Under the pieces are notes generated by a model that was given only the letters and a program-made list of their open reading frames with translations, was not told where the DNA came from and made no database searches. 64,000 bases of DNA from the sequence record OR352947.1; one strand, given 5' to 3'. This DNA comes from Escherichia phage AV117. This document shows positions 2,203 through 51,135 of the stretch, piece after piece (position 1 is the stretch's first letter; every line of letters starts with the position of its first letter). Made by a program: the position numbers and the translations under genes.

Positions 2203-3872
2203 TGATGAGTGATATCGCCACCGATTGGACGATAAGAAACACCGGTTTCTTTATCAGTTAGTACCCATTTACCAGGATTTTTTGTAATCAGAGTAGCCGT
2301 TACAGGTTCTGCTACGTCATAACTAATAGAGCCGTCCTGAAGTACACGGCCCATGTTACGTAATTGCTTAGTCAGAAGTTCCATACCTTTATAATATGCG
2401 GCTACCGCTTTAAGTGGATTATTCTTGAAATAACCACCTAATGCAATCCAGATAATTGCCGCTGCCAAATGATGATACTCGTTAAACGAACTCATCTTTC
2501 CATATTTGTAAACTAATGGATTGATGTTAATAGACACATTACAAGTTGTTTCATCGATAGTAAACTGTCCCCAGGTCGGATTAGCATTGAATTCATCATA
2601 ACCTGAAACAGCGTAAAGCACTTTAGCTTCATCATACAATTTTGGGCCGTAAATCTTGGTTTCGCCAAAATATCCACGAGGGTCGATAAACTTGACTTCG
2701 CCGTTATCAGTAATCATAGTATTACTGAAGTTCGGGTCACCATGAATAACAGAGTACTGTCCCTGAGAACGGTTATGATAACGAATAAGGTGTTCTAAAG
2801 CTTGTTTCAGCATTGGTTTCAGACGCCCAATCTTAGTGTAGTTCACATGTGTGATTTTACCAAATGAATCAATCAATGGTTGAATACTTTCACAACGATC
2901 AATGACTTTAGTATAGAATTCTTTAGTGAAATCACGACGAACAGTTTCAGGACTTACAAAATAAGTGTCTGTGCTGAATTTCAGTGCGTCTAAAATTGCA
3001 TCAACAATTTGTGGACGAGCAAGACTCGATTTGGATTTAATATATTCAAATGCTGGCTTACCTTTAATGCGTTCCATTTCAAAGTTATTTTCATTAACAG
3101 AAACTAACTGAGGAACTGAATCTGATTTCACTTTAAGATACCATGAAATCTCATCTTTCTGAAGAGCTCGACCCTGTTCGGTTAATGCGAATTTAGTTAC
3201 AGTTTCTTCACCAATTTCAACTGCATTAAAACTACGATTAAGTTCACGAACTTCATGAGCTTTTTCAAGTTTAGGCATATCACCTAAATCAATTAGATTC
3301 ATAAGCTCTGATTTATTGAATGCGCTGCCGTAAAGGAATTCTACGAAATCGCGTCCTTTGCAGTATTCATGAATTTCCTCATCAGTAGAACCCATATAGA
3401 ATTCCCAGTCTTTGAACTGATAAATTCCTACAACATTACCACCTGTTGAACCTACGTTAGTGATATTTTCACCGTCGAAATTATATCGACATTCGTCACC
3501 CTTAACATAGATTGCGTTAACATTCCAAGACCATGAACCAAAATCAGGAATAATATCACACCAGTTAACAATTACATTATGGCCGTCTAAATCTTTGTGC
3601 AATTTAGCAAGAGCATAAGCAGAACCATACGCTTCATCAACTGTACGAATAGTCACATTGAACCCTTCTTGCTCACAATAAGCTCGAACAGTTTCAGCAA
3701 ATTTTGAATGAACTACTACAATAATTTCATCTGCGCCAAGGTCAGAATAAATTGTATACAAATTGCTCAGAATAGTGTCTTGTTTATAATTAACAAGCAC
3801 CTTAGGAATATGATGCGTTATTGGATACAAACGAGTTGCCAGTCCAGCACCAAGAATAACAGCTTTTTTCAT
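2187..3872 (-). CDS. bifunctional sugar nucleotidyltransferase / sugar 1-kinase (NDP-sugar synthesis)
   Basis: 561 aa; N-terminal MKKAVILGAGLATRLYPIT is the GxGxR NTP-transferase signature (RmlA/GlmU-like); C-terminal HGDPNFSN and DPRGYFG resemble the catalytic loop of APH/choline-kinase-like kinases. Confidence 0.75.
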   Translation of the reverse strand: MKKAVILGAGLATRLYPITHHIPKVLVNYKQDTILSNLYTIYSDLGADEIIVVVHSKFAETVRAYCEQEGFNVTIRTVDEAYGSAYALAKLHKDLDGHNVIVNWCDIIPDFGSWSWNVNAIYVKGDECRYNFDGENITNVGSTGGNVVGIYQFKDWEFYMGSTDEEIHEYCKGRDFVEFLYGSAFNKSELMNLIDLGDMPKLEKAHEVRELNRSFNAVEIGEETVTKFALTEQGRALQKDEISWYLKVKSDSVPQLVSVNENNFEMERIKGKPAFEYIKSKSSLARPQIVDAILDALKFSTDTYFVSPETVRRDFTKEFYTKVIDRCESIQPLIDSFGKITHVNYTKIGRLKPMLKQALEHLIRYHNRSQGQYSVIHGDPNFSNTMITDNGEVKFIDPRGYFGETKIYGPKLYDEAKVLYAVSGYDEFNANPTWGQFTIDETTCNVSININPLVYKYGKMSSFNEYHHLAAAIIWIALGGYFKNNPLKAVAAYYKGMELLTKQLRNMGRVLQDGSISYDVAEPVTATLITKNPGKWVLTDKETGVSYRPIGGDITHQWERI

Positions 3873-10897: not shown

Positions 10898-12586
10898 TTA
10901 TGAAACAGTCATTACCGTAAATCGTCCAACTTTGCTCATCTGAAGATGTTGTCCGTACCGTTGAGGGTCATGGTCTCGATGGGAGATAATGAACACATTA
11001 GTATTTTGTAAACTTCCAAGGATGGTATCTATAGCCTTAACAGCCTCAGAATCGACAGCACCATCAAAAACCTCATCAAGAATCAGAGTGTTGATTTTAA
11101 CACCAGAGACCTTTTCAGCAATATCTCGCCATGTAAACAACAATGCGATATCGATACGTGCCTTTTCACCTTGACTAAATGAAGCATAACTAAAATCTTC
11201 ACGACCACGTGATTTTATAGATTCATTGAATTCTTCGTCAATAGAAAACACGTAATCAGCTTCCATGATTTTAAGATAATGGTTAATCTGCTTGTTGAAC
11301 AGAGGCACATATTTTTTAATGATAGCACCTTTAATACCAGAATCTTTTAACATATCTGTGATAATACCACGATGGTATTTTTCAAGAACGATATCTGATT
11401 TTGTTTTAATGATTTTATCAAGTTCTTTTTGAAGCAAAGCTATCTCATCGGCATGGTCGATAAATTCAGCTGAGGCTTGTTCTATTGCAGCTTTAACTTT
11501 CTTAGCTTTATCAATAGTGGCAATCATTGCTTGTTTCTTAGTACGAATATCAGATGCAAGGTCCTGTTTAGTCTTAACATTAGCTCTATATTCGTCAACT
11601 AGGACACTCAGATTATCTCTGTGACATGTAAGTTGCTCGAATGAGTGATTACATTCGTGAAGCTTATCGGTAATCTTAGAGACAATAGGGTCACCCTGGT
11701 GCAACTGTGATGCGCAAGTAGGACATGTACCACCATCATGATACATCTTAATAACTTTATTATATGAGTCAATTTTAGATTTAATCAAGAATGCTTCTTG
11801 TCCTATCTTGTTGAATGCCTCAGTAGGGTCTTCATCAAGAACGATATTAAGTAGTCGCTCATTAGCTTCTTCGATTTCTGCTTTTAATGAACGAGCTTCT
11901 TTGGCTAGGTCGTCATACATATTCTGTAGACGCGCTACATTATCACCAGATAATTTCTTTTGACGTTCGATATTCTCGTTATAAATCTTAATTTGTTGGA
12001 TAATACCATCTTTCTTGGCATCGAGAACTTGTCCCTGGGAATTAAGTTCTCGAACTTGAGACTTATTGATTTTATCCATTTCAGCGAGTGTGCCGACTTC
12101 TAAAAGGTCTTCGACAAGTTTTCTGCGAGCAGGGGTGCTAAGAGCCATGAAAGGGGTATACCCTGCCGTCCCAAGCACAACGATTTGTTTAAAAGACGCG
12201 TATGACATTCCGATGCTACGTTCAAATTCTTCTTGGAAGTCACGACTGCTGGCAGATTCATCAAGACGAACACCGTCAACGGAGATTTCGAAAATATTGG
12301 GTTTTTGGCCACGTTTAATGAAGTATTTTTTACCATCGAATTCCATCCAAAGCTCAACTAAGAGCTCTTTCTTGTTCGTGCTATTAATGATTTGCCCTTT
12401 CTTAACATCACGAAATGGTTTACCGAAAAGTCCGAAAGTAATGGCTTCTAACATCGTAGATTTACCACCACCATTTTTACCAGTGATTAATGTCTTTTGG
12501 ACTTTATCTAATTGGATGTCAATAGGATTCCCACCTACCGACATGATGTTTTGATAACGAACACGATTTAATTTAAATGATTTCAT
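10898..12586 (-). CDS. 46: recombination endonuclease subunit gp46 (Rad50/SbcC-like ATPase)
   Basis: 562 aa; Walker A GKNGGGKST, central coiled coil, C-terminal LILDEVFD; T4 gp46 is 560 aa. Confidence 0.93.
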   Translation of the reverse strand: MKSFKLNRVRYQNIMSVGGNPIDIQLDKVQKTLITGKNGGGKSTMLEAITFGLFGKPFRDVKKGQIINSTNKKELLVELWMEFDGKKYFIKRGQKPNIFEISVDGVRLDESASSRDFQEEFERSIGMSYASFKQIVVLGTAGYTPFMALSTPARRKLVEDLLEVGTLAEMDKINKSQVRELNSQGQVLDAKKDGIIQQIKIYNENIERQKKLSGDNVARLQNMYDDLAKEARSLKAEIEEANERLLNIVLDEDPTEAFNKIGQEAFLIKSKIDSYNKVIKMYHDGGTCPTCASQLHQGDPIVSKITDKLHECNHSFEQLTCHRDNLSVLVDEYRANVKTKQDLASDIRTKKQAMIATIDKAKKVKAAIEQASAEFIDHADEIALLQKELDKIIKTKSDIVLEKYHRGIITDMLKDSGIKGAIIKKYVPLFNKQINHYLKIMEADYVFSIDEEFNESIKSRGREDFSYASFSQGEKARIDIALLFTWRDIAEKVSGVKINTLILDEVFDGAVDSEAVKAIDTILGSLQNTNVFIISHRDHDPQRYGQHLQMSKVGRFTVMTVS

Positions 12587-37128: not shown

Positions 37129-37437
37129 TCAATTAGAAAATAAATTTATCCAAGATTTTTCTTTAATCAAAAATGGGTCGGAATTAAACGCCATTAAACT
37201 TTGAGTGATTAATCCCTTAAATGGCCCATCAATAAATTCCATTTTGAAATGCGGAATACTAGTCATCAACCGTGCATTAGGAGCAGTACAAAGAACCTGC
37301 TGCCCTGCGAACGGACCTTTAGTCAAACGATATCGTTTAGGTTTAAAATGGTAAATCTCGTAATTTTCTACAAGAGCCCTTTTATTGCATACTTGGCTGT
37401 TATAACAATACTCAAAAACTTCAATAGTGGTCATCAT
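37129..37437 (-). CDS. hypothetical protein
   Basis: start set at ATG overlapping upstream stop. Confidence 0.45.
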   Translation of the reverse strand: MMTTIEVFEYCYNSQVCNKRALVENYEIYHFKPKRYRLTKGPFAGQQVLCTAPNARLMTSIPHFKMEFIDGPFKGLITQSLMAFNSDPFLIKEKSWINLFSN

Positions 37438-37973
37438 TGCATTCCAATCACAAAAAATTGAGGACGAGCAATACCGCCGATGCAATATTTACTTTTGCAG
37501 CAGTGCTGTACTGTTTTAATATGGACATTGTAAATCTTATCCATATCAGGAGCTTTAATAGGCTCATCAATTATATACAGAATACGAGAAAGCGTTAATC
37601 CACGGAATTTAGAACCTTCATTGCCAATAAAACTACGGACAGAATCAGTAAATAAACGGAATCGAATATCGTCGCTAGAATAACGTGAAAATTCTTTTTC
37701 AATGTTGCCAGCAGAAATTTTAGCATAAGCTGAAGTATTAGAAAGAACAATAACTGTTCCACCGTCATACAGCCAATTAGCAGCAAAGTTAGTCACAGCA
37801 ATTGATTTACCTGATTGTCTGCCACCGTCTAAACGAAGTGTACAGTACTGCTTGAGTACGTCTTCAAATGGTGGGACATAACCGTTCTTACAAATTTCTT
37901 CTACTCTAGCATCAGAATGGTGTGTAAAAGCATTCATCAGGGATAGATAAGGTCCAGTTAAAAATGTTCTCAT
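37434..37973 (-). CDS. hypothetical P-loop protein
   Basis: start at ATG 37973 (MRTFLTG); Walker-A-like GGRQSGKS. Confidence 0.5.
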   Translation of the reverse strand: MRTFLTGPYLSLMNAFTHHSDARVEEICKNGYVPPFEDVLKQYCTLRLDGGRQSGKSIAVTNFAANWLYDGGTVIVLSNTSAYAKISAGNIEKEFSRYSSDDIRFRLFTDSVRSFIGNEGSKFRGLTLSRILYIIDEPIKAPDMDKIYNVHIKTVQHCCKSKYCIGGIARPQFFVIGMQ

Positions 37974-38246
37974 ATTATTTCTCTTAAGGTTTGGGCCATT
38001 CCGTGGCACATGAATTGTCCATTTCTGTATTTACCCATTACCGCACTTGGGCTCGACCTTATTACAGGTTGGCGGGAATCCCTCATAGAATCATGAGGTC
38101 CAGGTTGTTCCCATGTTATTTGAATGTAAATATTTTTGCCGTAATACTTATACTAGTGTGGCTTCATTAAAATTTTTTCATCGAGTCATTTCACCTCTCC
38201 AAGTAATTATGAATATACTATCACAATTTTAGGAGAAAGTAAACTG

Positions 38247-38549
38247 TTATTTACCTTTAATTACTTTAGCTGCTTCGATAGCCGCTTGCTGAAGGTCATC
38301 CATAGACATACCGAATTTAGAAGCAAAGTTATCAATTTTCCTTTCGACAGCATTCAAAGGCTTGGCCTGTTTACCTTCATTAGCGCCAGGAAGAGCGAGA
38401 ATACGCTCTTTGTCAATATAAAGGCTTACAAGTTTCTTACGGTCTTTATCGGACAAATCATGAAATGAATGGGCCTTTTTATTTATAGCGGCTTCTAATT
38501 TACCTGCACTCACTCGCGCTTCAGTAATAAATTCTTGATATGTTTTCAT
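38247..38549 (-). CDS. internal (capsid-packaged) protein with CTS
   Basis: 100 aa; N-terminal MKTYQEFITEA capsid-targeting sequence characteristic of T4 IP proteins. Confidence 0.7.
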   Translation of the reverse strand: MKTYQEFITEARVSAGKLEAAINKKAHSFHDLSDKDRKKLVSLYIDKERILALPGANEGKQAKPLNAVERKIDNFASKFGMSMDDLQQAAIEAAKVIKGK

Positions 38550-38575
38550 TTTTGTTCCTATTGGTTTAATTTATG

Positions 38576-38890
38576 TTATTCTTTAGGGAAGTTTTTAGAG
38601 TATGCATCATAAAGTTTATTACCGATGCGACGGAAGACTTTAGCTGCAAAACGGTTTTCAGGGTTTTTAATCATGATTTGCATCATGTAAGTTCCTGCAT
38701 CCGAAAGAGCTTCTTCATAGTACCCATTAATTTCTTTAAGGGTTCTACGTTTACCACCAGGTCCATCAACAGTAATTTTCCATTTACCTGTAGAAGTGCG
38801 GCTCGGTGGTTCAACTTGTTCAATCCAAATATAACCGCCTTCAACGCGTTGGTTGGCGGATTCTGCAATAAATTCTTTATACGTTTTCAT
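38576..38890 (-). CDS. internal (capsid-packaged) protein with CTS
   Basis: 104 aa; N-terminal MKTYKEFIAESA. Confidence 0.7.
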   Translation of the reverse strand: MKTYKEFIAESANQRVEGGYIWIEQVEPPSRTSTGKWKITVDGPGGKRRTLKEINGYYEEALSDAGTYMMQIMIKNPENRFAAKVFRRIGNKLYDAYSKNFPKE

Positions 38891-38953
38891 TTTTGTTTCC
38901 TTGTTTGTTTTGATAGAGTAATTATACCATATTAATACTTAAGCGTAAACAAT

Positions 38954-39214
38954 TTAAGCTTTACCGCCAGAAATAATTCCGAAGTTGTTAAAATCGTATC
39001 CAATATCGTCAACATCTACTTTAGGGCTTGCTACAACATAAGCAATTTCACTACGTTTTGCATAGGTGTTGATTTCTTTACCATCGTCACCTAAGAAAGA
39101 ATACCCATTACGTTTTAATGAGCCAAAGTCTTCCGCATCACCAATGAAAGCTTTAACTTTAAATTTAGGACCTTTGGCATCTGCGTCAATGATAAATTCT
39201 TGATACATTTTCAT
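38954..39214 (-). CDS. internal (capsid-packaged) protein with CTS
   Basis: 86 aa; N-terminal MKMYQEFIIDA. Confidence 0.65.
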   Translation of the reverse strand: MKMYQEFIIDADAKGPKFKVKAFIGDAEDFGSLKRNGYSFLGDDGKEINTYAKRSEIAYVVASPKVDVDDIGYDFNNFGIISGGKA

Positions 39215-39220
39215 TTTTCC

Positions 39221-39634
39221 TTAGTAAATTGATTTACCATAGTATTTGTACCAAGTCGGACGTTGAGCAATTTTTTCATCTAAGCGTGCTTGACTTATCG
39301 CAATGGACGCTTCGGACGGGACATAATTATTACGAAATTCGGCAGGGATGTCGGAAATATCCTGGACTGTCGTGTCCTTGATTTTGAAACCACGTTTCAA
39401 ACATTCAGCGATTAGCTCGATTTGTCGTAAACGTAAAAATTCGAGTTTGTCGTAAAAGAATGTTACGTGACCTGTGCCTAAGATAAATGTTGGAGAGATT
39501 TTAAAATCCTTTACACGTTTACCGTTTTGAACATGTTTACGGACTGCACCAAATACGCGTGGTAATTCACGATACTCAGCCATAAGATGTTGGTCGGTCA
39601 GTTCAGAAACAAGTGTTAAATTGATACGAGTCAT
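39221..39634 (-). CDS. denV: endonuclease V (pyrimidine dimer DNA glycosylase) DenV
   Basis: 138 aa from [35 protein letters not shown]; near-identical to T4 DenV. Confidence 0.95.
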
Positions 39635-39661
39635 AATTTCCTCCAAGTAGTTGATGAATGT

Positions 39662-39691
39662 ATAGTATCAAAACCCTTGGAGGAAGTAAAC
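39662..39691 (-). promoter_or_regulatory. early-type promoter (denV)
   Basis: minus-strand GTTTAC-N18-TACTAT. Confidence 0.5.
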
Positions 39692-39692
39692 A

Positions 39693-39974
39693 CTATTTTT
39701 CTGAAGCGCCCGAAATATATTTTTCAAGACGTTGTTTCATCAGCGAGCCGTTCTTAGCGATTTCTTCCGGTTTATCGCACATGCGCAACAAGGCTTCAAG
39801 CTTAACGATATCACTGGTACGTTCAAATTTGCGAGTATCTATCTTACTAGCAAGTTCAGAAATACGTGCTAATAGACTTTCAGCTTCAACCAAAGCTGCA
39901 CCTAGCTTAGTCGCAAATGTGTCAGTAGCTTCGTTAAGAATAGATTCTGATAAAAATTCACTATATGTTTTCAT
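39693..39974 (-). CDS. internal (capsid-packaged) protein with CTS
   Basis: start at ATG 39974 giving [11 protein letters not shown]; ATGA overlap with lysozyme stop. Confidence 0.65.
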
Positions 39975-40459
39975 ATATACGCTTTCCAAGTTCCTGTTTT
40001 AAATGTTGAGATTACGCGTTTCGCTCGATTAGGTGTCTGACGATACCATTTAGATTGGGCTAGATTTACTGCCGCTTCATCCCAACGTTTCTGTTGAAGC
40101 ATACGAAGAGAATTAGTAAAACCAGCGACGCCTGCTACACCCATTTGGAAGACCATATTGACCAATGCACATCGACGAACTGCATCTAAAGAATCATATA
40201 CCGGTTTAAGTTTAGCATTACCCAAGATTCCGCGAACAGCTTTATCAACGTCTTCATTAAATAACTTTTCAGCCTCATCAAGGGTAATTGTACCGTTGCA
40301 TTTACGTCCGATCATTCTGTCAAGTTCAGCTTTAGCTACGGTTAAAGACGGGTTCTTTGTTACTAAATGACCTATGCCAATCGTCCAAAAGCCTTCAGTG
40401 TCTTTGTATAAAGACAGTCTAAGACCTTCGTCATTACGAAGCATTTCAAATATATTCAT
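39971..40459 (-). CDS. e: lysozyme (endolysin) e
   Basis: [31 protein letters not shown] with catalytic E11/D20/T26 context; T4 lysozyme homolog. Confidence 0.95.
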
Positions 40460-47757: not shown

Positions 47758-48384
47758 TTACTTACGAGTTTTTGCATACTGAGCAGCGTCAGCAGCCAAA
47801 CGACCTGCCTGACGAAGTTTTTCTTTAATCGCATCGTGAAGTGGTTGAGTATACTTCAAACCTTCGATAGTCAAATAAAGACGATAAAGGTCTGGGGTAT
47901 CAAGGTTGTTGATATGTTGGCCATTGCGAAGAATATTGAATTCACGAACGAGTGAAGATGTATCGGATTCAATATCGCGAACAAGCGAAGATAGTTGTTT
48001 ATATTTTTTTTCCAGGCTAGAAGTATCAAACTTAAGAGCAGGAGCTTTAGGAGTTGCTTTTACTTCCGGCTTAGGCTCAGGTTTTGCTATTGCTTTAGGG
48101 GTCGCAGGTTTAGGAATGGTAGGAGCAGGTTTTACTTTAGGCGAACCCGATTTAGCAGAAACACCACCACTAACAATATCTTTGAATGCTTTAGAAGCTC
48201 TGTAATATTCTTTTTGGCTGGAAGTGTCGATACCGTACATGGCTTGAACGTTTTTGAAAAACTCTGTACTAGTTTTTGTACCAGAAATAGCATCGTAAGC
48301 AGCTTGCCATTTCTCTTTTGTCATACGTATACCGGCTTCGGTGATTACTTCCGTTTCGGCTAAAAATTCATTAAAAGTATACAT
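47758..48384 (-). CDS. internal-protein-like protein with variant CTS and Pro/Lys-rich linker
   Basis: 208 aa; N-terminal MYTFNEFLAETE resembles MKTYxEFIxE CTS; central PKVKPAPTIPKPATPKAIAKPEPKPEVKATPK repeats. Confidence 0.55.
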   Translation of the reverse strand: MYTFNEFLAETEVITEAGIRMTKEKWQAAYDAISGTKTSTEFFKNVQAMYGIDTSSQKEYYRASKAFKDIVSGGVSAKSGSPKVKPAPTIPKPATPKAIAKPEPKPEVKATPKAPALKFDTSSLEKKYKQLSSLVRDIESDTSSLVREFNILRNGQHINNLDTPDLYRLYLTIEGLKYTQPLHDAIKEKLRQAGRLAADAAQYAKTRK

Positions 48385-48428
48385 TGATGGTCCTTAGAAA
48401 GTAGGTTTATTGTTTACTATATTTATAC

Positions 48429-48456
48429 AAAAAAGCCCCAACCTTTCGGAAGGGGC
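48429..48456 (-). terminator. rho-independent terminator
   Basis: minus-strand GCCCC-N12-GGGGC hairpin followed by U6; near-copy of 32360..32388 terminator. Confidence 0.6.
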
Positions 48457-48499
48457 TATATACCTTGTCGGGGTTTCCACCTACTAGGTAAGTGTTTTT

Positions 48500-48657
48500 A
48501 CGAAACGCCGGGATTCGAACCCGGTTATTAAGCAGTTGACGCTACTCAATATTTTTAAAAGGCCATATCTCGACCATATCCGAACGTTCCGTCAAAAACG
48601 CTACTCGGCTTACGGCAAAGATATTTCCTCGAATCGATAATTCTGTGCGCCGTTTCT
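48500..48657 (-). ncRNA. candidate tRNA-like small stable RNA
   Basis: minus-strand CCGGG-UUCGAAU-CCCGG T-arm with adjacent CGUUUCG acceptor strand and distal complementary GAAACG; about 158 nt, too long for a canonical tRNA. Confidence 0.25.
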
Positions 48658-48759
48658 GCTGTGATGTAAGGGGGTATTAACAAATCGTAAAGATTTATTA
48701 AGACCAGTCCTTACTCAGGGAACATCAGTCCGACGTCTTGCCGGTAGCGACCCGGCTTC

Positions 48760-49104
48760 TTATTTTGGCATATCATCAATTTGCTCTCGACGCCGACGCC
48801 ATAGATTAATCGCTTCATAAACACATTCAGCATTTGGTATATGGCGACAATAGTATAGTGATTCGCGTTTCTGGAACCGATGTTGTAATGGAATTTCGTT
48901 TAAAAGGTCTTTACGGTCAAAGTATTCAAAACTAGTTAACCCGGAACGGTTTTTAAGAAACTTCCAATGTCCGAATTCATTTTGAAAATAAACGTAATCA
49001 GCGTGTTGATATAACGAATTAATCAACCGGTCGGAAATAACTGTATCCTGTTCGTTAAAATAAAACGTTAAATCATGAACTACCAAATAAATATTGCCTT
49101 TCAT
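48760..49104 (-). CDS. hypothetical protein
   Basis: start set at ATG 49104 (MKGNIYLVVHDL) after GAGGAAAA, avoiding overlap with tRNA. Confidence 0.5.
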   Translation of the reverse strand: MKGNIYLVVHDLTFYFNEQDTVISDRLINSLYQHADYVYFQNEFGHWKFLKNRSGLTSFEYFDRKDLLNEIPLQHRFQKRESLYYCRHIPNAECVYEAINLWRRRREQIDDMPK

Positions 49105-49122
49105 ATTTTCCTCACTTGAAGT

Positions 49123-49199
<77 letters not shown>

Positions 49200-49202
49200 G
49201 AT

Positions 49203-49277
49203 TGGTGACCCTGGCTGGTTTCGATCCAGCTACCTATCAGTTATGAGCTGACAGCTCTCCCATTGAGCTACAGGGCC
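49203..49277 (-). tRNA. tRNA with CAU anticodon (Met or lysidine-type Ile)
   Basis: 75 nt cloverleaf: acceptor GGCCCUG/CAGGGUC, anticodon loop CUCAUAA, T-arm GCUGG-AUCGAAA-CCAGC, encoded CCA. Confidence 0.7.
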
Positions 49278-50783: not shown

Positions 50784-51071
50784 TTACAGAAGAGTTTTTG
50801 CAATAATTTTAAGCTGAGCTACAGAAATATGCTTAGCTTTAAACAGTGCAGTCTCTTCAGCCGGAGAGATAACAATAGTAGCGCCATCTTTCTTAGCAGA
50901 CCATCCATCCCCTAAGTAAACAGTACCTTTTACTTCTTCGCCGTCAACCAGACTAATCATTGGTTTACCCTCACGTCCTTTATTTGCTTTAATAACTTCG
51001 GAAGTAAGGGTTGCTTCAGTCAGAGTAGAAACGTTAGCAACAGGTGATATAAATTCTTTATAGGTTTTCAT
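50784..51071 (-). CDS. ipI: internal protein I-like (capsid-packaged, CTS)
   Basis: 95 aa; N-terminal MKTYKEFISPVA; sits next to 57B as ipI does in T4. Confidence 0.7.
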   Translation of the reverse strand: MKTYKEFISPVANVSTLTEATLTSEVIKANKGREGKPMISLVDGEEVKGTVYLGDGWSAKKDGATIVISPAEETALFKAKHISVAQLKIIAKTLL

Positions 51072-51105
51072 TTTATTTCCTTGAGGTCGTTTATTTGATA
51101 GGATG

Positions 51106-51135
51106 ATAGTATCACGCCATCATCCTTATGTAAAC
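51106..51135 (-). promoter_or_regulatory. early-type promoter
   Basis: GTTTAC-N18-TACTAT with AGGATGAT/ATCATCCT inverted repeat. Confidence 0.5.

Follow-up and report, generated by a model that had tools for sequence, protein, structure and literature searches.

Six open reading frames (ORFs) in a 64-kb stretch of phage DNA (hereafter, the window) begin with the capsid-targeting sequence (CTS) of phage T4, and we assign them, with a probability of roughly 85%, to a Mosigvirus as its internal head protein (ip) genes. Five of the six genes are already recognised, and the sixth, encoding a protein of 208 amino acids, is one modest new addition; the ipI, ipII, Ip10, 86-aa and 93-aa genes described here represent known biology, textbook rather than discovery. 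No phage protein enters the host cytoplasm earlier than the internal proteins, and each of the three that have been studied neutralises its own type IV restriction enzyme. Knowing which cargo a therapeutic or environmental T4-like phage carries therefore helps to predict its host range. For the present window that catalogue is almost wholly known.

Judged by sequence, the source of the window is a Mosigvirus, a T4-type coliphage like RB69 and JS09. The 2.6 kb around the ip genes share 98% DNA identity with Escherichia phage AV110 (Mosigvirus); hundreds of T4-like genomes match this region, the best RefSeq matches being Mosigvirus genomes of the RB69/JS09 group. Exact-sequence catalogue matches were obtained for two of the six CTS proteins, the ipII orthologue included, and led to phage AV117. 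The gene order is T4-like: vs.6-vs.8, the ip/denV block, e, nudE, the e.x genes, rnaC/rnaD, tRNAs, trna.2-4, ipI, 57B, 57A and gene 1. One further ORF, at 48760-49152, was rejected as a gene on the grounds of its overlap with tRNA-Arg and the rnaC/rnaD homologue. Genes 21 (prohead protease) and 22 (scaffold core), which lie outside the window, belong to the core genome of T4-related phages (PMC9026906).

A six-frame regular-expression scan of the window located the motif [YF]xEF[ILVM] directly after an initiator Met in six places only, all on the minus strand. Five of these N-termini read MKTYQEFITEA (38247-38549), MKTYKEFIAES (38576-38890), MKMYQEFIIDA (38954-39214), MYTFNEFLAET (47758-48384) and MKTYKEFISPV (50784-51071), while the remaining one belongs to a 93-aa gene whose true start is the ATG at 39974, the TTG at 39989 proposed by the ORF lister having been rejected. 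The original prediction had recognised a T4 CTS in the ORFs at 38247, 38576, 38954 and 39693 and a variant MYTFNEFLAE in 47758..48384, and had counted ipI as the last of six; each of these is present on the minus strand at those positions, and the window holds six such proteins and no more. Support for the count also comes from a position-specific matrix built from 34 distinct CTS N-termini of other phages and applied to 575 Met-started candidates of at least 50 aa. The six ORFs scored between +14.7 and +38.0 bits, and the next best candidate scored -9.9. The gap in matrix scores, together with the motif scan, therefore marks the six-member set as complete for the window and as lying far beyond chance.

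The tags also make sense residue by residue. Tyr or Phe at position 4 and Phe at position 7, the targeting residues, are retained in all six ORFs, and the [L/I]-x-Glu motif for cleavage by gp21 occurs in five (at position 10, or at position 19 in ipI), the 86-aa ORF being the exception. Each ORF has a Shine-Dalgarno sequence at the proper distance, and the ribosome-binding sites and first ~24 nt of the six genes are alike at the DNA level as well. The bodies behind these starts are mutually unrelated, with alignment to T4 internal proteins (IPs) limited to the first ~11-18 residues. Shortness of the motif is the one point that could be raised for attributing the set to chance or to an artefact of ORF calling. 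Such an explanation would have to accommodate the 24 bits by which the sixth ORF outscores its nearest competitor among the 575 candidates, the well-placed Shine-Dalgarno sequences and the existence of conserved homologues of all six in hundreds of phage genomes, and it deserves next to no credence.

The first ten residues of T4 IPIII suffice for entry into the prohead core, CTS residues 4 and 7 being the most important for targeting and residues 8 and 10 for gp21 cleavage; about 300 copies of each IP are packaged per head and ejected into the host (PMC9026906). Apart from Asp10 in the 86-aa protein and the leader of ipI, which is cut further on, the residues that are critical in that work are present here, which upholds the equation of the motif with the T4 capsid-targeting sequence. 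Taking the established T4 mechanism as a guide, we infer packaging, processing and injection along the following lines. The CTS, comprising the first ~10 residues, would bind the gp22 scaffolding core and the protein would thus be built into the prohead. The gp21 protease would then cut off the tag after the Glu of [L/I]-x-Glu, and the mature, mostly basic proteins would stay with the packaged DNA and be injected along with it. Given injection with the DNA, internal proteins can act ahead of any phage gene expression. The literature searched (fHe-Yen9-01, JS98, AV110, Kosakonia phage 305 and Mosigvirus in general) yielded no virion proteomics or N-terminal processing data for these Mosigvirus proteins.

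Among the recognised genes is the ipI orthologue (95 aa; 50784..51071, minus strand), for which the name ipI, given before any database had been consulted, proved right. Its product matches PF11634 (IPI_T4) with E = 1.3e-50 and 169.7 bits (gathering cut-off 25), residues 20-95 covering the entire model, and is 88% identical to T4 IPI, from which it differs at 11 of 95 residues. Cleavage is predicted at LTE/A (the slash marks the cut) after residue 19, which would release a 76-aa IPI*; T4 IPI is likewise cut late. The ipII orthologue (100 aa; 38247..38549, minus strand) shares 92% identity with T4 IPII across all of its 100 residues, and phrog_7857 'internal virion protein' matches it along its whole length (E = 1.5e-54). 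Predicted cleavage at FITE/A would leave a mature form of 90 aa with a pI of 9.7. Next to it, the Ip10 orthologue (104 aa; 38576..38890, minus strand) falls into a 90% cluster with 'Ip10 [Enterobacteria phage Pol]' (CAA84455), matches phrog_3966 and has a 72% identical homologue named Ip10 in Shigella phage SP18, the name itself dating from 1994. Its similarity to the T4 IPs is confined to the CTS, and the predicted cleavage at FIAE/S would give a mature protein of pI 9.6.

Two further products belong to families annotated as internal head proteins. The 86-aa protein (38954..39214, minus strand), acidic with a pI of 5.0, matches phrog_2667 'internal head protein' (E = 7e-20), and its orthologues in RB69 and other phages carry the same annotation in RefSeq. 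The 93-aa protein (39693..39974, minus strand) is a member of the RB69ORF127c family: it matches phrog_3499 'internal head protein' (E = 1.2e-46), shares a cluster with RB69ORF127c, itself annotated internal head protein, and contains the cleavage motifs FLSE/S and ILNE/A. Pfam searches with the four uncharacterised bodies (Ip10, 86-aa, 93-aa and 208-aa) returned nothing above threshold, with weak DUF7412 and CsgH matches below it, and NCBIfam gave nothing but a low-complexity TonB-linker match. Start-codon calls in the databases hide the CTS in some records (for example the 86-aa gene in RefSeq, RB69ORF124c).

The 86-aa protein departs from its family in one position. Residues 7-10 read FIID, the codon GAC at 39185-39187 specifying Asp10 in place of Glu, whereas Glu10 is found in every relative examined; a catalogue of about 15 billion proteins does not contain the exact sequence. 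In the IPIII tag, Asp10 is reported to prevent processing but to leave targeting and packaging intact (PMC9026906), and the allele may therefore be packaged with its tag still on. By analogy with IPIII, the 86-aa protein is thus probably packaged unprocessed at the Asp10 site, which would make it a natural allele with the same Glu10-to-Asp change that stops tag removal in the laboratory. Alternatively, the Asp10 codon could be a sequencing error. An AlphaFold2 model of this protein, computed from five sequences, had a pLDDT of 44 and was unusable.

Five of the six CTS genes sit in the two variable ip loci (e/denV and 57B/ipI), the 208-aa ORF being the exception. At the first of these loci, denV (endonuclease V; 39221..39634, minus strand), identified by PF03013 and by 91% identity to T4 denV, does have four ip genes around it, as had been proposed, and is the conserved gene between the ip cassettes. 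The 86-aa gene (ip86) starts 7 nt past the denV stop and ipII starts 26 nt past ip10. The 93-aa gene (ip93) begins within the stop codon of e, the lysozyme gene (shared ATGA), so that ip93 is probably transcribed and translated together with e. T4 early-type promoters precede ipI, denV and ip10. The promoter before ip10-ipII (38921..38949, minus strand), of the form TTTACG-17-TATAAT with TG, has 10 of 12 consensus matches and shares its GTTTAC...TAnnAT layout with the regions upstream of T4 ipI, ipII, ipIII and denV. Those upstream of denV (39638-39685) and ipI (51100-51126) are accompanied by stem-loops of 10 and 8 bp, respectively, as in T4 ipI, ipII, ipIII and denV. A scan of the window found no late promoter before the four denV-flanking ip genes which, as in T4, either follow a promoter of the early type or depend on coupling to e or denV.

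The contents of these loci vary widely among relatives. A survey of 80 denV loci from IMG/VR, in which body families were delimited by body-only BLASTP, revealed 76 CTS-starting ORFs, all on the denV strand, located on both sides of denV and confined to enterobacterial T4-like contigs. Together with the proteins of the window and of T4, they form about 20 body families. RB69 and the related phage phi25-307 carry other cassettes at the positions occupied here: in phi25-307 an 'internal virion protein' gene of 579 nt separates ipII from Ip10, and RB69 has a 109-aa CTS protein in place of ipII, with one more CTS gene inserted between ipI and 57B. The locus corresponds to the hypervariable ip hotspot described by Repoila et al. 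1994, as relayed by Rao & Black 2010 (PMC3012670), Arbiol et al. 2010 and Silas et al. 2025 (PMC12373910). Arbiol et al. 2010 state that ip genes are confined to two loci, with promoter/stem-loop elements flanking the cassettes. On our reading, phages exchange these cassettes through recombination, for which the conserved 5' ends and the promoter/stem-loop elements provide the sites.

The sixth CTS gene (47758..48384, minus strand) encodes the 208-aa protein, a member of phrog_2280 'unknown function' whose residues 1-16 read MYTFNEFLAETEVITE. An AlphaFold2 model (pLDDT 72) places behind the CTS a helical domain (residues 20-72), a basic Pro/Ala/Lys linker (74-112) and a three-helix C-terminal domain (122-206). 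The Pro/Lys-rich linker that the original prediction had read from the sequence is real, residues 74-112 being predicted disordered. When the model was compared with the PDB by Foldseek, nothing but unspecific helical bundles came up, none with E of 1 or below, and comparison with BFVD gave only members of the protein's own family. The predicted structure thus offers no hint of function. After processing, the protein is predicted to be basic (pI 9.7-9.8), like IPII and IPIII. A profile search of 1.8 billion representative proteins recovered just 13 clusters for the family, every one of them with a CTS-like start. Relatives are found in at least six genera (Mosig-, Dhaka-, Karam-, Marfa-, Kanagawa- and Winklervirus), Dhakavirus JS98 among them, and all begin with a CTS. 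Close homologues have the canonical MKTYNEFLNES and distant ones MLNFKEFITES, MLKFKEFISEA or MITFNEFLNES. In two clusters the N-terminal domain and linker are kept and the C-terminal domain is a different, unrelated one.

The 208-aa gene lies 2.4 kb from ipI, beyond trna.2-4, two tRNAs and the rnaC/rnaD homologue, and falls outside both ip loci; an Rfam search near the gene returned two tRNAs and nothing else. The site, just downstream of the tRNA cluster, is common to Karam-, Marfa-, Kanagawa- and Winklervirus and the present Mosigvirus. A terminator hairpin with a U-run (48457-48429; fold of -17.1 kcal/mol, z = -3.2) is followed, 43 nt upstream of the gene, by the T4 late promoter TATAAATA (48427-48420), the two elements occupying 48420..48457 on the minus strand. 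Only seven exact TATAAATA sites, this promoter included, occur on this strand in the 64 kb. The same arrangement of a GC hairpin and then TATAAATA, CATAAATA or GATAAATA (xATAAATA) is found upstream of homologues in five other genera. At the same third site RB69 has a different CTS gene (MKTYAEFLTEAA), which is split into ORF149c and ORF148c in the record; a gene of the RB69ORF149c type is intact, at 187 aa, in two IMG/VR contigs. Compared with the 208-aa family by hhalign, the RB69 ORF149c-type gene and a neighbouring 157-aa CTS protein proved distantly related to it, with 90-93% probability at E about 1e-6, values that come from a shallow profile.

These observations make packaging of the 208-aa protein rather likely, and its sequence features point to a probable family of internal proteins, expressed late from a third locus, that has so far gone unrecognised. 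The 208-aa protein would then be a seventh kind of cargo, encoded at that locus and combining the same tag with expression from a late promoter. We lean, by a little, towards a broader proposal, namely that the family and its distant relatives (RB69ORF149c) form an unrecognised class of CTS virion cargo with a third ip locus, a late promoter, synteny in at least six genera and a modular build with an exchangeable C-terminal domain. If true, a cargo class at a third locus contradicts the published confinement of ip genes to two loci.

Several facts sit uneasily with this assignment. The gene has never been annotated as an IP, being 'hypothetical' in 40 of 40 sampled out of the 138 phage records that contain the protein; it lies outside the two loci; and its promoter is late, not early. 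Residue 2 is Tyr, Leu or Ile, not Lys, in most members, and the literature searched yielded no proteomic evidence. One could accordingly picture an ORF whose product is not virion cargo at all and acts in the cytoplasm late in infection, its CTS-like start reflecting shared ancestry or recombination at gene starts. Set against that picture is the selective conservation of the tag: nearly every cluster retains residues 4, 7, 8 and 10, although identity over the rest of the protein falls below 35%. Phe4 also occurs in T4 IPI, several members have the canonical MKTYNEFL, and Glu16 and Ala17 are invariant or nearly so, giving a second conserved cleavage site, ITE/A, behind the tag. A late promoter, moreover, suits a virion protein. 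A purely cytoplasmic role is therefore unlikely in our judgement, and a widespread 'hypothetical' family with a loading tag merits testing as cargo.

Concerning function, the original prediction had reasoned that diverse bodies behind a conserved CTS are candidate anti-defence proteins, and this agrees with published work. The view that a conserved tag, unrelated bodies and anti-defence cargo belong together was stated by Rao & Black 2010 (PMC3012670), and T4 Ip1, Ip2 and Ip3 each inhibit their own GmrSD type IV restriction enzyme, without cross-protection (Silas et al. 2025, PMC12373910). IPI* inhibits the GmrSD of E. coli CT596 (PMC3012670), IPII is an inhibitor of GmrSD-ECOR21/BrxU, and IPIII is required for infecting strain ECOR17 according to published work. 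The ipI and ipII genes of the window are, at the level of sequence, close orthologues of the T4 inhibitors of two distinct GmrSD-type enzymes. BrxU, of the GmrSD family, has been reported to cut the arabinosylated DNA of Mosigvirus, and the retention of ipI and ipII in this genus therefore makes sense. We infer all targets in the present phage from such precedents: the Ip10, 86-aa and 93-aa proteins would enter with the DNA and inhibit host factors of other kinds, additional modification-dependent nucleases being the likeliest, and analogy suggests that anti-restriction activity may extend to the bodies of all four uncharacterised proteins, the 208-aa protein included.

These four might instead be mainly structural. 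They would then help to condense DNA as basic counter-ions, or to shape the prohead core as assembly factors, rather than inhibit defences. The IPs of T4 are basic proteins with an affinity for DNA at low salt and are abundant in the head, at the copy number given above, and an IPIII mutant shows a halved rate of head assembly and more polyheads (PMC9026906). Once mature, three of the four uncharacterised proteins are basic or close to neutral, the 208-aa protein combines a histone-tail-like Pro/Ala/Lys linker with a late promoter and synteny across genera, and ip4-10, Ip10 among them, assayed against 15 GmrSD groups, showed no reproducible inhibition (Silas et al. 2025, PMC12373910). Each of the three T4 IPs, however, counters a particular restriction target, and none of them is needed on laboratory hosts; the exchange of ~20 unrelated body families at one locus is the signature of an arms race, not of structural need; and the 86-aa protein is acidic. 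A mainly structural role for the four proteins thus appears doubtful, and inhibition of host defences remains our preferred reading for the class. The 208-aa family is a partial exception within it. Its synteny across genera suggests a more general DNA-associated or delivery role, and a family that is conserved rather than hypervariable fits arms-race cargo less well; conservation and linker are no less compatible with a DNA-associated or delivery role than with strain-specific anti-restriction. If the proposed cargo class is real, it suggests that the injected protein has a conserved delivery module, which may be bound to DNA.

In comparison with known systems, the genes described here most closely resemble those for T4 IPI, IPII and IPIII, with which they have in common the CTS, the gp21 cleavage motif, a small size, mostly basic mature forms and a location by denV/e and 57B. 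Unlike T4, the present window has no ipIII, and whereas the T4 order is e-ipIII-ipII-denV, with denV at the end, denV here lies between cassettes (e-ip93-denV-ip86-ip10-ipII). The two phages also differ in their DNA: according to published work, the cytosines of Mosigvirus are arabosylated (arabinosylated 5-hydroxycytosine) rather than glucosylated, and the relevant restriction enzymes may consequently differ. A second likeness is to the polymorphic T-even ip genes Ip4-Ip12 of Repoila et al. 1994: the 104-aa ORF, matched through database labels, is Ip10, and early promoter/stem-loop elements flank the genes, as described for the two ip loci. More than 30 ip variants are attributed to Comeau et al. 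2007 in PMC2839356, which cites that work. Finally, the DarA, DarB and Hdf proteins of phage P1 and the Alt protein of T4 follow the same logic, in that they are loaded into the head, delivered with the DNA and act before phage transcription; they differ from the ip proteins in having no sequence relation to them and in using other loading signals, and the Dar proteins of P1 are large.

Database start-codon calls conceal the capsid-targeting sequence (CTS), the N-terminal tag of T4 internal proteins, in both the 86-aa gene (38954-39214 in the window, minus strand) and RB69ORF124c, the RB69 Ip10. In RefSeq the former is started at Met3, giving 84 aa (MYQEF...), while the latter is annotated with 90 aa from a start downstream of MKTYKEFIAES, and its C-terminus deviates as if frameshifted. 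Such tag-hiding calls lie at 3380-3640 and 2266-2526 of two comparison sequences (L001 and L002, respectively) and at 1348-1680 of RB69 (L091, NC_004928). Codon 10 of the 86-aa ORF (39185-39187) is GAC, encoding Asp, whereas every examined relative has Glu at this position; no identical protein was present in a collection of 15 billion. For a tag of the T4 internal protein IPIII with Asp10, processing by gp21 has been reported to be blocked, but not capsid targeting (PMC9026906).

The clusters P0111 and P0114, from the profile search with the 208-aa CTS-bearing protein (47758-48384, minus strand), have the CTS, N-domain and Pro/Ala/Lys linker common to its family but unrelated C-terminal domains past the linker, a pattern that points to domain swapping, with the N-terminal module conserved. 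In RB69 the locus of the 208-aa gene is occupied by a different CTS gene (MKTYAEFLTEAA; 10929-11491), which the record breaks into ORF149c and ORF148c. Two IMG/VR contigs have an uninterrupted 187-aa version and, in tandem with it, an additional CTS gene of 157 aa, the products of both being distant relatives of the 208-aa family (hhalign 90-93%). In these contigs the region spans 990-2150 (L020) and 763-1925 (L021).

Lysozyme gene e ends, and the 93-aa ip gene (39693-39974, minus strand) begins, within a shared ATGA at 39971-39974, where stop and start codons overlap; this arrangement suggests that the two are translationally coupled. The late-promoter-like AATAAATA begins 32 nt upstream of the e start codon (40491). 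An exact late-promoter motif, TATAAATA, also occurs within the ipII coding sequence (38480-38487), where it spans the codons Ala-Ile-Asn-Lys and is probably a coding coincidence; T4 has Val at this position and lacks the motif.

Compared with the 219-aa T4 annotation, vs.8 (37434-38086) is split: a 38-aa ORF (37970-38086) matches T4 residues 1-33 and the remainder occupies a separate frame (37434-38009). In relatives only the downstream portion, of 179 aa, is annotated.

A 130-aa ORF (48760-49152) is probably spurious as a gene, given that it overlaps tRNA-Arg and the homologue of rnaC/rnaD (48425-48765 and 49123-49277). This homologue is 88% identical to the T4 stable RNAs, which have no Rfam entry. 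Beside rnaC/rnaD, T4 carries eight tRNA genes, whereas the window carries only two (Arg-UCU and Met-CAU).
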